From the NCBI GenBank assembly GCA_032162105.1, contig JAVRPS010000446.1: a stretch of 58,140 nucleotides of DNA; one strand, 5' to 3'. Each line of letters begins with the position of its first letter. Within the stretch, counting starts at the first letter, position 1. This document shows, in pieces, positions 52,578 through 58,140 of the stretch. A program made the translations under genes and the position numbers. This DNA comes from Mycobacterium sp. (GTDB lineage Bacteria > Actinomycetota > Actinomycetes > Mycobacteriales > Mycobacteriaceae). The notes below the pieces were generated by a model. That model was not told the DNA's origin, did not search any database, and saw only the letters and a program-made list of their open reading frames with translations.

Positions 52578-53723
52578 CTATTGTGCCGACGGTCGAATTT
52601 CCGATCGGGCCGCGGCGGCCGGGTCACGGGCGGCGAGCTCGCTGGTGAATGCGATCTCGGTGTCCAGTAGCCGGCGGGCGACCGTCTCCTCCGCACAGGT
52701 CCGCAGTGTGGAGGTGACCTCGCCGACCCACCTGTCCATCAGCGCCCTGTCGTGCAGGACACCACGGATGCCGACCACCCAGATCGTCAGCAGCAGTCCG
52801 ACGACGCCACCGACGAGAAGCCCGATCAGGTCCGAGCCGGGCCCCAGCTGAACCGTCAGACGGCTCAGCGTCAGCGCCACCCCAAGGCCGAAGCCGCCAC
52901 CGAGCACCAACATCAGCCGGGTCTCCAGCCGACGCGACGACGGTCGTGGCAGGGGCAGTCCGTGCGACGGTGGTGCAGCCGACGGCGGTGGCGGCGTCAG
53001 CGCGAGCGCGCCTGCGACCTGACGGATCGTGGCGTCGATGGCTTCATCTATCGCCAAGTCCAACTCCGCATCGAAGTCGGCCACGGCGTCGCGCACTCGG
53101 TCGGCGAACCGGGCCGTCGCGCCACGCGGCAGTTCGACCGCCTCCGCGCGCAGGTCGGCACCGATCGCCGCGCACCGTCGGCGCACGAAGTAGACCAGCG
53201 TCAGGCGGGCCTTCTGGATTCCGCCCCGCACGGCTAGGGCATCCGCGGATCTCGACGACCGGTGTCCGCGGAACACGCTGGCCCGCAGCCGGTTTCGCTG
53301 GTTCAGATCCGGACGGGCGAGGCAGGCTCGCAGCGTGTCGACGAGTTCGTCAACATCGGGTTCGCCGAGATCGGGAGCCGCGGCGACCCCCACCCACGGC
53401 ACCTGCCGGTAGCGCTCGTCCCGTCGGGCCACCAGTGCGCGGTCGGCGGTCAGCACCTCACGCCACCCGCGGTGGGCGTCGATCTTGGAAACCGCCGCGA
53501 TCACCAGGTCGGTGCCTGCCGCGGCCCGTTCGATCAGATCGACGTCGGAGTCGGCCAGCGGTGCGACGGCCGAAGCGACGATCACCACCGCATCGGGTGT
53601 GGTCGGCCCGAGCGCCTCGACGACCGTGTGGTCGGGCAGGCGCTCCGCGACCGCCGCGGCGAGGCTGGAGGCGCCGGCCGACGGCGGCCCGACCACCGCG
53701 ATGACACGGCTGGGCGCGGTCAC
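52578..53723 (-). CDS. Rv0210-like membrane protein with a degenerate GTPase (dynamin/Ini-like) N-terminal domain
   Basis: VVGPPSAGASS, SKID, helical region, C-terminal TM hairpin. Synteny. Confidence 0.75.
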   Translation of the reverse strand: MTAPSRVIAVVGPPSAGASSLAAAVAERLPDHTVVEALGPTTPDAVVIVASAVAPLADSDVDLIERAAAGTDLVIAAVSKIDAHRGWREVLTADRALVARRDERYRQVPWVGVAAAPDLGEPDVDELVDTLRACLARPDLNQRNRLRASVFRGHRSSRSADALAVRGGIQKARLTLVYFVRRRCAAIGADLRAEAVELPRGATARFADRVRDAVADFDAELDLAIDEAIDATIRQVAGALALTPPPPSAAPPSHGLPLPRPSSRRLETRLMLVLGGGFGLGVALTLSRLTVQLGPGSDLIGLLVGGVVGLLLTIWVVGIRGVLHDRALMDRWVGEVTSTLRTCAEETVARRLLDTEIAFTSELAARDPAAAARSEIRPSAQ

Positions 53724-54721
53724 CAGAAGCCGTCAAGCAGTCGCAGCGATCCGCGGGTGATGTCCGCGCCGCATCGGCGGTGCAGCGCATCGACGGGCCC
53801 TCGGCTATACCGCCGCCACTGCGCAGCGCGGCGCCGGTGCGCGTCGGGGTCATCACCGGGGTCGACCCGGATGCCGTCGGCTTCCACGACGTCGACGGCC
53901 GCCGTCATCGTGGCGAGCACCGCGGCGTCGGAGTTGAGCAGCCCGAGCAAGGCTTGGTCATCCAATTGAACTGCCAGCGAATGCATCTCGGCCAACGCCG
54001 CCCGAAGTCGCCGATAGCGGACTGGGGCGGAGGACGCGTCGAGCCTGGCCAGTACGGCGTCGACGTTGCTCAGCCGTTGCAGGAGCGTCGGCAGCGTGGC
54101 CGGGTCGGCGCCGCGGGCCAACGCGAGCACGGCGTGTGCGATGCCGAACCGGTCGAGGCGTTCGAGCAGACGCGTCCGGATCTCGCGGCCGACGGGGTGA
54201 TCACCACTGGTGAAGGCGTCGACGGAACGGAGGTCGGCGGCCGTGTGCACCAGCGAGCGCAGCGCGTCGACGAGGTCATCGTCGAGCGCCGTTGTCTTCC
54301 CCAATAGACCGACCATGGCGACGGTCGGCGTTCCGGTGCGCCGTTGCACGTCGGCCGCCGTGCGGTGCGCGTTCGGCAGTGCGCCGCCGGATCGCGATCC
54401 GGTCAGATCGGCCTTGTTCAGCACGATGAGCGTCGGCCTGTCGGTCGCCGCCATCGCCCGCTCCTCCGGCTTGAGCGCTTCGGCGATCACCAGCACCTGG
54501 ACGTCTGCGGCGGCGGTGTCGGCGGTGACGGCGACGCCGTGGTCGCGCAGTGCGGCGGCCACCGTATCGCGGCCCACCCCGGCCCGGCCCACCACCGCAA
54601 CCCCGACCCGACGCGTGAGACGGGCGATGATCTGCGAAAATTGCGGCATCGGCGCGGTCTCAGCGAATCGCGTCAGATGCTCGCTGAAAGTCGTAGCAAC
54701 GTCGGCTGATGGATTCGGCAT
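53720..54721 (-). CDS. Rv0209-like protein with a degenerate GTPase (IniC-like) domain; start uncertain
   Basis: VVGRAGVGRDT, VLNKADL, RLLERLDRFGI. The stop overlaps the next gene's start. Confidence 0.75.
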   Translation of the reverse strand: MPNPSADVATTFSEHLTRFAETAPMPQFSQIIARLTRRVGVAVVGRAGVGRDTVAAALRDHGVAVTADTAAADVQVLVIAEALKPEERAMAATDRPTLIVLNKADLTGSRSGGALPNAHRTAADVQRRTGTPTVAMVGLLGKTTALDDDLVDALRSLVHTAADLRSVDAFTSGDHPVGREIRTRLLERLDRFGIAHAVLALARGADPATLPTLLQRLSNVDAVLARLDASSAPVRYRRLRAALAEMHSLAVQLDDQALLGLLNSDAAVLATMTAAVDVVEADGIRVDPGDDPDAHRRRAAQWRRYSRGPVDALHRRCGADITRGSLRLLDGFW

Positions 54722-54858
54722 AACTCGGTAAACCCCCAGGCCATCGTCGCATCTCGGCGACGCCATCATGAGCGGAGATTTTGCGGTACCCGGCCCACGC
54801 GGACGGAAGGCAACTGTTGGGTATCAATCTGTACCACGATGCGGGTCCACCGGCCTCG

Positions 54859-55623
54859 ATGAGCGACGATGGACGGATGTATGCCCAGCGCGAGGAGGCC
54901 GCCCTCGAAGCGGCCGGGATCCCTGCGCACCCCTACCCCCGCATCACCAGTTTCCGGTCAAGACGTTCGGCGCTCTCGGGTGGTCAGCAGGAAACCTGGG
55001 AACGTCGCTGGCCCGAGCTCGGCATGCAGGCCAGAGACTCCGACGGCCTGCCAACCGGCTCGTTGGACACCGAGTCGTGGTTCGGCCGGTCGGCACCCTT
55101 GGTTCTGGAGATCGGCTGCGGCGCAGGAATCTCGACCCTGGCGATGGCAGCAGCCGAACCCGACCTCGACGTCATGGCCGTCGAGGTCTACCGGCGCGGG
55201 CTCGCCCAACTGCTCAGCGGTGTCGATCGGGCAGGCCTGACCAACGTCCGGCTGATCCGTGGCGACGGCGTCGACGTGCTTGAGCACATGCTGGCTCCGG
55301 GGTCGCTGACCGGCGTGCGGGTGTTCTTCCCCGATCCGTGGCCCAAGGCGCGCCACCACAAGCGCCGGCTGTTGCAGCCGTCGACGGTGGCGCTGATCGC
55401 CGACCGACTCGAACCCGGCGGTGTACTGCACGCCGCCACCGATCACGCCGGGTACGCCGAACAGATCGCCGAGGTCGGCGACGCCGAGCCGCTGCTGCAC
55501 CGGGTGGCCGTCGATGCCGTGGGCTTGCCGATCTCGGTGAGTCGCCCCGTCACGAAGTACGAGGCGAAGGCCCGGCACGCCGGGAGTGCCATCAGCGAAT
55601 TCCTCTGGGAGAAGACCCGATGA
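54859..55623 (+). CDS. trmB: tRNA (guanine-N7)-methyltransferase
   Basis: LEIGCGAG, FFPDPWPKARHHKRR, ATDHAGY, TKYE. Confidence 0.95.
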   Translation: MSDDGRMYAQREEAALEAAGIPAHPYPRITSFRSRRSALSGGQQETWERRWPELGMQARDSDGLPTGSLDTESWFGRSAPLVLEIGCGAGISTLAMAAAEPDLDVMAVEVYRRGLAQLLSGVDRAGLTNVRLIRGDGVDVLEHMLAPGSLTGVRVFFPDPWPKARHHKRRLLQPSTVALIADRLEPGGVLHAATDHAGYAEQIAEVGDAEPLLHRVAVDAVGLPISVSRPVTKYEAKARHAGSAISEFLWEKTR

Positions 55624-56321
55624 GCATTACCGAAGAAATCCAGGATCTGGGGCAGAATCCCGAGTCGCCCGCAGCGCCGGTCGCCGTGCCGGAGCGGGTG
55701 CTTCTGGTCTGGGACGCCCCGAATCTCGACATGGGTCTCGGCTCCATCCTCGGCGGCAGGCCGACCGCGGCGCACCGCCCTCGGTTCGACGCGCTAGGCC
55801 GCTGGCTTCTGGCCCGCACCGCCGAACTGTCCGCCGCCCGCGCCCACGAGGACCCGCAAGTCTCGCTTGAGCCGGAGGCCACGGTCTTCACCAACATCGC
55901 GTCCGGAAGCGCCGACGTCGTGCGCCCGTGGGTGGAGGCGCTGCGCAACGTCGGCTTCGCGGTGTTCGCCAAACCCAAGATCGACGACGACAGCGATGTC
56001 GACAGCGACATGCTCAACCACATCGCGCTGCGCCGCAGCGAAGGTCTTGCCAGCGTATTCGTGGCGTCCGCCGACGGGCAGGCGTTCCGGTTGCCGCTCG
56101 AGGAGCTGGCTCGCGATGGCATCGAAGTACACGTTCTCGGATTTCGCGAACATGCGAGTTGGGCACTAGCGTCGGATACCTTGGAGTTCGTCGACCTCGA
56201 AGACATTCCTGGTGTCTTCAGGGAGCCGTTACCGCGAATCGGCCTTGATTCGCTGCCCGAGCAGGGCGCTTGGCTGCAGCCGTTCCGACCGCTGTCTTCG
56301 CTACTGACGTCGCGCGTCTGA
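55620..56321 (+). CDS. NYN-domain protein (Rv0207c-like)
   Basis: WDAPNLDMG, DVDSDM, ASADGQAF, DLEDI. ATGA overlap with trmB. Confidence 0.88.
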   Translation: MSITEEIQDLGQNPESPAAPVAVPERVLLVWDAPNLDMGLGSILGGRPTAAHRPRFDALGRWLLARTAELSAARAHEDPQVSLEPEATVFTNIASGSADVVRPWVEALRNVGFAVFAKPKIDDDSDVDSDMLNHIALRRSEGLASVFVASADGQAFRLPLEELARDGIEVHVLGFREHASWALASDTLEFVDLEDIPGVFREPLPRIGLDSLPEQGAWLQPFRPLSSLLTSRV

Positions 56322-56371: not shown

Positions 56372-58140
56372 GTGTTCGCCTGGTGGGGTCGAACGGTGTA
56401 CCGATTCCGATACGCGGTGATCGGAGTCATGGTCGCACTGTGCGTTGGCGGCGGCATCTACGGCATCAGCCTGGGCCAGCACGTCACGCAGAGTGGCTTC
56501 TACGACGACGGCAGCCAGTCGGTGCACGCGTCGGTGATCAGCGACGAGGCCTACGGACGTGACACGTCGGGCCACATCGTTGCCATCTACACCGCGCCCG
56601 ACGGCAAGACGGTCGACGATCCGGCGTTCCAGAAGAAGGTCCTGGACAACCTCGCCCAGGTCGAAAAGGACCACCCCGACCAGATTCTGCGCTCGATCGG
56701 TTACTTCAAGAGCCCCGAGCTGCTGAAGAACATGGCAGACGCCGACAAGAAGCAAGCCTTCATGTCCGTGCAGCTGAAGGGCGACAACGACGACCAGATC
56801 CTGAACAACTACAACAAGAACGTCGGCGAGGACGGCAAGACCGTCAAAGAGGCACTGAACATCGACGGCGTCAGCGTTCAACAGGCCGGCCTGCAACCGC
56901 TGGCCAGTGAGTTGACCGGCACCATCGGCGAGGACCAGAAGCGCGCCGAGGTGGCCGCCATCCCGCTGGTCTGCGTGGTGCTGTTCTTCGTGTTCGGCAC
57001 CGTGATTGCGGCCGCACTCCCAGGGCTCATCGGCGGCCTGACCATCGCGGGCGCCCTCGGCGTCATGCGCCTGATCGCCGAGTTCATCCCCGTGCACTTC
57101 TTCGCCCAGCCGGTGGTGACCCTGATGGGACTCGGCATCGCGGTCGACTACGGCCTATTCATGGTGAGCCGATTCCGGGAGGAGCTCGCCGAGGGCTACG
57201 ACACCGAGGCAGCGGTGCGTCGCACGGTGATGACCTCGGGCCGGACCATCATGTTCTCCGCGGTGATCCTGGTTGCGTCCTCAGTACCGCTGCTGTTGTT
57301 CCCACAGGGCTTCCTCAAGTCGATCACCTACGCGATCATCGCCTCGGTCATGTTGGCGGCGATCCTGTCGATCACCGTGCTGGCCGCCGCCCTGGCCATC
57401 CTCGGGCCCCGCGTCGATTCCGTTGGCGTGAAGATGCTGGTGCGGTTCGCCCAGCCCGATCCCATCACCTCCGACCGCTCCAATCCACGCTCCAATCCCC
57501 TCGCACTGGCATCGATCCCGGTCGGGATCTTGCTTCCGCCGCTGGGCATCGCGTTCGGACACATCGCCCGATCCCGCATCAGGACGACCGGTGAACGCGG
57601 CGCAGGGCTCGCCCTCATCGGTTTGGTCCTCGGCTATGTCAGCCTGATGTGCGCGCTCGGATACGGAGTGGTCGCCCTTCGCGACGCAGGCATCGTCGAA
57701 AGTGCGCTCTACTGGATCCTGCTGGGCATCGTGATCTTCGTCTCGGTGGTCATCGCCGGACTCGCCCTGGCGCGGGCCGTGCCGCTCCTACGCGGCCCGA
57801 TCGTCTGGTGGCTGAACTGGCTGGCCGAGAAGACCCAGAAGACCAAGACGCGCGCCGAGGTCGAGAAGGGCTTCTGGGGCAAGCTCGTCAACGTCGTGAT
57901 GAGGCGCCCCGGCGCATTCGCGCTGCCGATCGTCATCGTGATGATCATCCTCATCATTCCGCTGGGCCAGCTCGCCCTCGGCGGCATCAGCGAGAAGTAC
58001 CTGCCGCCCGACAATGCGGTCCGGGTGGCGCAGGAAGAGTTCGACAAGACCTTTCCCGGATTCCGCACCGAACCACTGACGCTGGTGATCGAGAGCGACA
58101 ACGGCCAGCCGGTCAGCGACCAGCAGATCGCCGAGGTCCG
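56372..58140 (+). CDS. mmpL3: Trehalose monomycolate transporter MmpL3 (3'-truncated; missing from the ORF track), carrying a large internal insertion
   Basis: RBS AGGAG, GTG 56372: MFAWWGRTVYRFRY...HVTQSGFYD...GLGIAVDYGLFMVSRFREE (Asp-Tyr pair)...GGISEKYLPPDN. Open to the window end. Confidence 0.96.
   Translation, partial: MFAWWGRTVYRFRYAVIGVMVALCVGGGIYGISLGQHVTQSGFYDDGSQSVHASVISDEAYGRDTSGHIVAIYTAPDGKTVDDPAFQKKVLDNLAQVEKDHPDQILRSIGYFKSPELLKNMADADKKQAFMSVQLKGDNDDQILNNYNKNVGEDGKTVKEALNIDGVSVQQAGLQPLASELTGTIGEDQKRAEVAAIPLVCVVLFFVFGTVIAAALPGLIGGLTIAGALGVMRLIAEFIPVHFFAQPVVTLMGLGIAVDYGLFMVSRFREELAEGYDTEAAVRRTVMTSGRTIMFSAVILVASSVPLLLFPQGFLKSITYAIIASVMLAAILSITVLAAALAILGPRVDSVGVKMLVRFAQPDPITSDRSNPRSNPLALASIPVGILLPPLGIAFGHIARSRIRTTGERGAGLALIGLVLGYVSLMCALGYGVVALRDAGIVESALYWILLGIVIFVSVVIAGLALARAVPLLRGPIVWWLNWLAEKTQKTKTRAEVEKGFWGKLVNVVMRRPGAFALPIVIVMIILIIPLGQLALGGISEKYLPPDNAVRVAQEEFDKTFPGFRTEPLTLVIESDNGQPVSDQQIAEV

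Follow-up and report, generated by a model that had tools for sequence, protein, structure and literature searches.

A DUF4190 membrane module in the TM6–TM7 linker of a mycobacterial MmpL3 and the likely exchange of its allele among fast growers

The canonical MmpL3 of this Mycobacterium sp. carries an in-frame insertion of 111 residues, including a DUF4190 domain, between TM6 and the helix that precedes TM7. By prediction, the insert supplements an otherwise conserved 12-helix core with a re-entrant hairpin and two transmembrane helices, and the allele encoding it likely passes from one fast-growing mycobacterium to another through homologous recombination. Public databases already label such proteins automatically as MMPL plus DUF4190; what is new here is, in all likelihood, the horizontal history of the mmpL3 insert as read from sequence comparisons. 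No paper treating DUF4190 and MmpL3 together was found in a literature search that had subscription journals and bioRxiv supplements outside its scope, and DUF4190 alone returned an unrelated co-expression list. Within the portions of the literature available, nothing was found on the insert, on mmpL3 allele exchange, or on inhibitor data for carriers. The insert-bearing form is apparently common in fast-growing mycobacteria and unremarked in the literature.

The window is the whole of contig C446 (58,140 nucleotides) from a 6.9-Mb genome of 735 contigs (90.6% complete, 3.9% contamination), and the same stretch is also present in soil metagenomes. All coordinates refer to the plus strand. The mmpL3 reading frame (56372..58140) encodes the N-terminal 589 residues, is open at the contig end, and resumes on contig C82, whose 127-nt overlap with the window is exact, for a total of 1102 residues. 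Its upstream neighbors are pckG, two genes that we label iniX and iniY, trmB, and an NYN-domain gene identified by domain search (55620..56321), of which pckG, trmB, and the Rv0207c-like NYN gene are canonical neighbors of mmpL3. The reference proteins are MSMEG_0250 (PDB 7N6B/7K8B) and Rv0206c (PDB 7NVH), with the NCBIfam model NF052608. The solved M. smegmatis and M. tuberculosis proteins match the reading frame at residues 1–358 and 481–588, and the gap between is unmatched. The NCBIfam score, taken from P0001, a close relative of full length (96% in the insert region), in place of the partial window protein, is 1597.8 against a cut-off of 1400. The TM4 Asp-Tyr pair of the proton relay (D259 and Y260; 57146..57151) lies in the window and the TM10 pair is encoded on C82; both pairs are also intact in each of 48 insert carriers from genomes other than this one. 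The protein shares with MmpL3, the exporter of trehalose monomycolate (TMM), its locus, the 12-TM RND core, two periplasmic domains, the Asp-Tyr pairs, and a long C-terminal tail. The gene with the insert is the organism's canonical MmpL3. A second, insert-free MmpL3 of 864 residues is encoded on another contig (C276; 1482.7 bits against the cut-off of 1400) and clusters with dispersed second mmpL3 copies of three other genomes. Given this copy, and a tandem insert-free copy in the two closest cultured relatives, the insert form in this lineage need not be self-sufficient.

Comparison with insert-free orthologues places the added segment at residues 359–469 (57446..57778). Two residues are missing immediately after it, for a net gain of 109, and the TM6–TM7 spacing is 186 residues against 77 in one comparison and 156 against 47 in another. 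Pfam finds two domains in the reading frame, MMPL and DUF4190 (PF13828), the latter at residues 379–428 (57506..57655) with 49.8 bits and an E value of 2.8e-13 in the whole protein; the excised segment scores 53 bits, and the gathering score is 35. A further hydrophobic helix follows the DUF4190 part, with a mean hydropathy of 2.6 over 46 inserts. The alignment with solved MmpL3 and the Pfam match, together with hydropathy and the structure models described below, bear out the preliminary description, which had proposed an in-frame DUF4190 insertion that brings additional membrane helices between TM6 and TM7. The available text of PMC10171966 gives 12 transmembrane helices for the solved MmpL3s. 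A standard MmpL3 has exactly 12 such helices and a short cytoplasmic TM6–TM7 linker, and the present protein has neither; because of its net gain of 109 residues with three hydrophobic helices, it is a variant rather than a standard MmpL3.

A 12-bp near-repeat close to the start of the insert (57476..57499), previously described as a duplication, is not a trace of the insertion. Eight close relatives have the same length at this position, without the perfect first copy; the perfect repeat is a private C-to-G substitution of this strain in a repeated codon run, and the C is seen in runs X11 and X15. In this comparison L248 was left out as frameshifted, and the upstream comparison for L196 is unreliable, probably owing to an indel.

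The predicted topology of the insert draws on AlphaFold models of close relatives, which share the residue numbering of the present gene, and on charge counts. Both models place insert helices at residues 376–387, 389–406, 411–438, and 444/445–469, followed by the native helix at 471–488. Helix A (residues 376–387 and 389–406; 57497..57589) is broken at a Pro-Pro pair and has a basic end; in the prediction it folds into a re-entrant hairpin that opens on the cytoplasmic side. Helix B (residues 411–438; 57602..57685) is predicted to cross the membrane from inside to outside and helix C (residues 445–469; 57704..57778) to return. The amphipathic helix before TM7 (residues 471–488; 57782..57835) is retained, its assignment following the lateral helices of MmpL3 described in the available text of PMC8752444. 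Over 46 inserts, Lys and Arg residues average 3.8 after helix A, 1.0 in the B–C loop, and 2.5 after helix C, and the B–C loop has an average of 1.6 Asp and Glu residues. As the end of TM6 and the start of TM7 are both cytoplasmic, the number of membrane crossings in the insert must be even. The likely arrangement, and the simplest, is a hairpin going back to the cytoplasm, with helix B running out and helix C running in, for a predicted total of 14 transmembrane helices plus the hairpin; it would keep TM7 onward in the normal orientation.

The core of the model for the G340 allele (90% identical over residues 1–589; 139-row alignment) has a pLDDT of 88.5 and a pTM of 0.87, with the insert blocks at 76–89. 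It superposes on 7N6B over 751 of 757 residues at 1.8 Å (Z 59.1), and the 12-helix core is kept. Superposition of the solved MmpL3s is at 1.5–1.8 Å overall, and the two six-helix bundles and both periplasmic domains are preserved, with the 111 additional residues of the TM6–TM7 linker as the difference. With a shallow alignment the core was modelled poorly (pTM 0.45), and the deeper alignment brought the pTM to 0.87. Fold searches with the model returned lists filled by the RND core and are uninformative for the insert. The broken helix A, the basic loop after it, and the superposition of the core agree with the re-entrant plus two-helix topology that had been suggested at the outset, as a prediction.

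Free actinobacterial DUF4190 proteins are about 45–57% identical to the insert over the domain and match helices A and B only, with a best coverage of 63% and one weak match at 80%. In these free members the domain is a terminal anchor with its C terminus outside, whereas here it is internal and is followed by an extra helix. In one of this genome's free DUF4190 proteins, helix B is directly followed by an extracellular PknH-like domain; this partner and the charge pattern are consistent with a predicted N-in, loop-in, C-out topology for DUF4190. The CD225/dispanin (IFITM-like) proteins have a related layout, in which an intramembrane hairpin is followed by a basic loop and one transmembrane helix. 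The likeness is an analogy of topology only: the insert gives no CD225 match in Pfam at E 0.1 and no PDB sequence match, and Atlas matches under 0.9 are DUF4190-like clusters only. The PDB sequence search found no solved relative of the insert, the one chance match having an E value of 6.7.

The preliminary description had implied that such an insert is rare, which the genus survey contradicts. At least 64 of 399 other genomes of the genus, about one in six, match through the insert with E values of 2e-257 or better, counted among the 150 matches listed (271 further ones; 400 of 401 genomes scored), and the next matches end at residue 359. All 47 carriers extracted from these 64 have the long linker, with a spacing of 187–197, and none has a shortened or half-lost insert. 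A protein search with the insert region, confined to proteins of 1032–2945 residues, gave 129 clusters; of the 120 listed, 119 bear the label MMPL plus DUF4190. Carriers whose insert was verified in stored proteins include M. aurum, M. vaccae, M. gilvum, M. parafortuitum, M. diernhoferi, M. bacteremicum, M. iranicum, M. monacense, M. litorale, M. doricum, M. tusciae, M. gadium, M. hodleri, M. madagascariense, M. celeriflavum, and M. novocastrense; M. tuberculosis, M. avium, M. abscessus, and M. smegmatis are not seen among these named carriers. Among cultured carriers, L191 (97%) and L192 (96%) are the closest. In all 72 distant MmpL representatives, the TM6–TM7 segment has at most 47 residues, compared with 153–163 in carriers. 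The offset of one protein, P0403, that could have signified a second insertion at this site is an N-terminal extension.

The insert form is the single MmpL3-grade match in 21 of 23 distinct carrier genomes, including M. aurum (24 genomes were taken, one of them a duplicate, and all candidates were scored), and the remaining matches in these sole-copy carriers are 32–36% identical. MmpL3 is essential in most mycobacteria tested, according to the available text of PMC10171966. Because the insert form is usually the only MmpL3-grade copy of a protein with this essentiality, it very likely works, and sequence evidence of this kind makes it highly probable that the insert-bearing protein is a functioning transporter, one that likely still flips TMM.

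The distribution of the insert conflicts with the history of the genomes that carry it. In an rpoB tree of 58 genomes (27 with the insert and 31 without, the latter mostly picked for similarity to this gene rather than at random), the insert state changes nine times, seven of the changes being forced by well-supported branches, and none of 200 bootstrap trees gives a single change. Grouping all carriers as one clade is rejected by rpoB (p 5e-47), by the N-terminal half of mmpL3 (p 3e-4), and by its C-terminal half (p 6e-7). The insert of G421 groups with those of G149, G005, and G320 (support 100/99), a grouping that rpoB rejects (p 1e-51); the N-terminal half of its mmpL3 lies with the present genome and its rpoB with G314. 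The insert of G273 groups with those of G291, G354, and G406 (97/81), and yet the TM blocks of G273 differ from those of the insert-free G261 by 0.01–0.03 (97–99% identical).

An insert-free and an insert-bearing allele stand in tandem at the canonical locus in five genomes (L191, L192, L216, G320, and G109). In L191 and L192, about 300 bp comprising the 3' end of the NYN gene, the spacer, and the start of mmpL3 are repeated before both mmpL3 copies, near-exactly in L191 and with indels in L192, and the repeat is decaying between copies. The upstream copy in these two genomes is 65–70% identical to the allele in the window and 83–84% identical to that of G022, from another lineage. The repeat looks like a scar of integration, such as a single crossover with foreign DNA would leave. 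The scattered carriers, the canonical linkers of insert-free alleles, the tandem alleles, and the repeat together indicate that alleles were likely swapped by recombination. A single capture of a DUF4190 anchor followed by allele swapping is quite probably the history: a donor piece would cross over once in the conserved upstream stretch to give a tandem pair, and later loss of one copy would switch the allele cleanly. Distributive conjugal transfer, which produces mosaic mycobacterial genomes, is a known route of chromosomal allele exchange in the genus (PMC3706393, available text); the tandem pairs with a repeated flank look instead like single-crossover integration.

Supported splits conflict with rpoB, a single marker that may itself recombine, in 12 of 18 cases for the N-terminal half of mmpL3, 3 of 10 for the C-terminal half, 3 of 7 for pckG, 3 of 5 for the NYN gene, 1 of 13 for trmB, and 3 of 15 for iniY. 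Exchange at mmpL3 is clear, and a special hot spot there is only suggested. Among the blocks of the protein, the periplasmic domain PD1 tracks rpoB worst (rho 0.10 versus 0.31–0.65 for the others); its distances are two-peaked, at about 0.12–0.17 or 0.46–0.50, and every combination of PD1 type and insert state is found. The insert has no match in 72,556 plasmids or 50,697 phages, no free protein with all three helices is found among 113 matches of 69–238 residues, and a helix-C profile search returned no matches that would point to an origin for that helix.

What the insert does may be approached through its position. The TM6–TM7 linker, which connects the two RND repeats, has no resolved structure in the M. 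tuberculosis map; the inhibitor pocket lies away from it in TM4/5/10/11, and 3 of 112 catalogued resistance variants fall in the linker (PMC8752444, available text). A simulated dimer has a face formed by TM1a, TM6, residues 344–353, and the PD1 loops, opposite the substrate site (PMC11352979, available text). The insert directly adjoins residues 344–353 on their C-terminal side, and from this adjacency and the simulated dimer the extra helices likely lie on the TM1/TM6 face. Since PD1 and the linker, the most reshuffled parts of the protein, both lie on the proposed dimer face, we tentatively prefer a reading in which the module reshapes this face and with it contacts to the oligomer, to a partner, or to lipid. 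The selected effect might then concern oligomer state, partner docking, or local lipid packing, rather than the proton relay or the inhibitor pocket. Ahead of the alternatives, this reading still has slightly less than an even chance; it is followed by a neutral passenger, a shield against an antagonist, and a fusion with an accessory factor, in that order.

The insert may instead be a nearly neutral passenger, a DUF4190 anchor that landed once in a tolerant linker, drifts with regional gene flow, and is kept only from misfolding. The linker between the repeats, unresolved in the M. tuberculosis map, would suit such an event, close relatives can hold either allele (G077 and G406, at an rpoB distance of 0.059), the genes next to mmpL3 also conflict with rpoB, and the insert is the fastest-changing block of mmpL3 among carriers (mean distance 0.43). 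Against mere tolerance stand 15 columns that are invariant across 46 inserts, including Gly-His and Arg at the end of the hairpin, a dN/dS of 0.10–0.31 relative to the eight relatives, the intactness of every extracted insert, and its persistence across many lineages. We consider a passenger unlikely, at roughly one chance in four, and contact reshaping remains the preferred reading.

Less probable again is an arms race, in which a soil phage protein, a rival toxin, or a natural inhibitor attacks MmpL3 and the PD1 types and the insert serve as alternative shields, hence the exchange and the extra copies. The two-peaked and poorly tracking PD1, its free combination with the insert state, and the tandem and dispersed second mmpL3 copies are what such a conflict might leave behind. 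However, no antagonist has been identified, the dN/dS values against the eight relatives give no sign of positive selection on the insert, and mmpL3 appears only among the depleted hits in the available part of a phage CRISPRi screen (10.64898/2026.10.08.757660). The inhibitor pocket is also distant from the linker, the few resistance variants there notwithstanding. In its fullest form, this improbable scheme would make mmpL3 a horizontally exchanged, modular gene of soil mycobacteria, with PD1 types and a DUF4190 shield over the dimer or partner face reshuffled by way of tandem intermediates with two alleles; the pressure would come from a natural antagonist (phage protein, rival toxin, or antibiotic) aimed at the very flippase, itself essential, that tuberculosis drug leads address. 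Were it true, DUF4190 would serve generally as a re-entrant docking module, its topology settled by this fusion.

Slightly more doubtful is a Rosetta-stone relationship, in which free DUF4190 proteins are accessory factors of MmpL3 or of the divisome and the fusion hard-wires a link, for example to CrgA. CrgA-like–DUF4190 fusions do occur in Nocardia (P0197, P0199, and P0215, both domains over cut-off), and CrgA binds MmpL3 by two-hybrid, SPR, and co-IP, the C-terminal tail not being needed (PMC6656915, available text). DUF4190, however, also occurs in fusions with PknH-like, cyclophilin, RDD, and DUF1707 domains, and with so many unrelated partners it looks like a general anchor; six free DUF4190 reading frames are kept in this genome; and TtfA and CrgA are present alike in carriers and non-carriers (30 of 30 and 31 of 31 genomes checked, respectively). 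A complex prediction of the insert with CrgA scored 0.00 and, its controls not having been folded, speaks neither for nor against the link. Substitution of TtfA or CrgA by the insert was considered separately and rejected, both partners being retained in all carriers checked.

With respect to its history, one ancient gain inherited vertically and lost repeatedly, with no transfer, is largely refuted and very improbable. All carriers share one insertion site and one architecture, some rpoB clades consist entirely of carriers (9 of 9), and the data neither reject nor establish a single origin for the DUF4190 part (p 0.33, 59 columns), which would accord with such a gain. Each loss, though, would have to restore the canonical linker, which has two more residues at its 3' side. 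In every one of the 59 insert-free rows of the tree, those nested among carriers included, the spacing is identical and the linker canonical, and the insert-free alleles are therefore not deletions of the insert. The insert groupings that contradict rpoB and the tandem pairs of divergent alleles with a repeated flank are likewise at odds with vertical descent, and recombination of alleles after a single capture is the history that we retain.

That the insert is an assembly chimera or a pseudogene is scarcely credible: the genome is fragmented and slightly contaminated, the gene is broken at a contig end, and a second mmpL3 is present, but a 480-nt contig from soil run X2, possibly not independent of the source sample, covers 57407–57886 and both junctions with 0 differences, and the same architecture recurs in single-contig genomes and in the 129 protein clusters. 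The junction check called for earlier is further answered by RNA-library contigs of related strains, which bridge the 5' junction (X15 and X18) and the 3' junction (X15 and X17); mmpL3 is covered by these contigs and iniX and iniY barely so, although contigs taken at a 90% threshold give no ranking of expression.

MmpL3 is a leading target for tuberculosis drugs and is regarded as a conserved, essential protein of 12 helices with a single gene copy, and in many fast growers the sole MmpL3 copy is a form with a predicted 14 helices plus a hairpin. M. aurum and M. vaccae serve as stand-ins in drug screening, and their MmpL3s differ from the solved ones right beside the proposed dimer face. The natural pairs of insert and insert-free alleles with near-identical backbones are tools for the question of monomer versus dimer and for locating the docking sites of TtfA and CrgA. 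Second mmpL3 copies, whether tandem or dispersed, could account in a testable way for the tolerance of an mmpL3 knockout by one mycobacterium, the reason for which is called unclear in the available text of PMC10171966. For the uncharacterized actinobacterial domain DUF4190, the fusion constrains the topology, as predicted here.

The first periplasmic domain of MmpL3 (PD1, about residues 37–175, encoded at window 56480–56900) was compared with its homologues, and it falls into distinct types whose distribution is independent of both the insert and the species-tree marker rpoB. Divergent mmpL3 alleles also stand in tandem at the canonical locus, as in the locus stretches L191 (138–6741), L192 (21–6690), L216 (387–6258), L045 (3006–9318), and L039 (3038–9246); in L191 and L192, a 3' fragment of the upstream NYN-domain gene is repeated between the two copies. 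In the pckG–trmB interval, two adjacent minus-strand ORFs (window 52578–54769) diverge fast, with 35–59% identity across relatives, and when this pair was sought beside mmpL3 in the relatives, it was unmatched there in several genomes.

Three proteins, P0197, P0199, and P0215, fuse DUF4190, the membrane-anchor domain found within the insert, to a domain resembling the MmpL3 partner protein CrgA; P0197 and P0215 carry the label Nocardia. In all three, the CrgA match begins only at profile position 23–30, and thus the N-terminal part is missing in these fusions. The genome of the window contains two crgA matches (contig C226, 20748–21029, and contig C222, 480–761) versus one in each of 30 other genomes, reflecting either duplication or bin contamination. 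Another of its contigs, C499 (L268 and L269), bears four DUF4190 genes arranged as two pairs, one of the four being fused to a PknH-like extracellular domain.

Outside the window, the same genome encodes a second, insert-free MmpL3 of 864 residues (contig C276, 1708–4302; L273), which scores over the cut-off of the NCBIfam MmpL3 family NF052608 and clusters with second copies from genomes G146, G363, and G415. The GC content of C276 is lower (0.648 versus 0.683), and an ORF termed cutinase-like from its appearance adjoins the gene. A separate family of second mmpL3 copies is observed in seven further genomes. According to PMC5440992, mmpL3 of M. neoaurum, a 2871-bp gene at the canonical locus, can be deleted. 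This length is that of an insert-free gene, unlike the MmpL3 proteins of M. bacteremicum and M. diernhoferi, which are insert forms of 1068 residues. The viability of the M. neoaurum knockout could be explained by a hypothetical second copy elsewhere in its genome.
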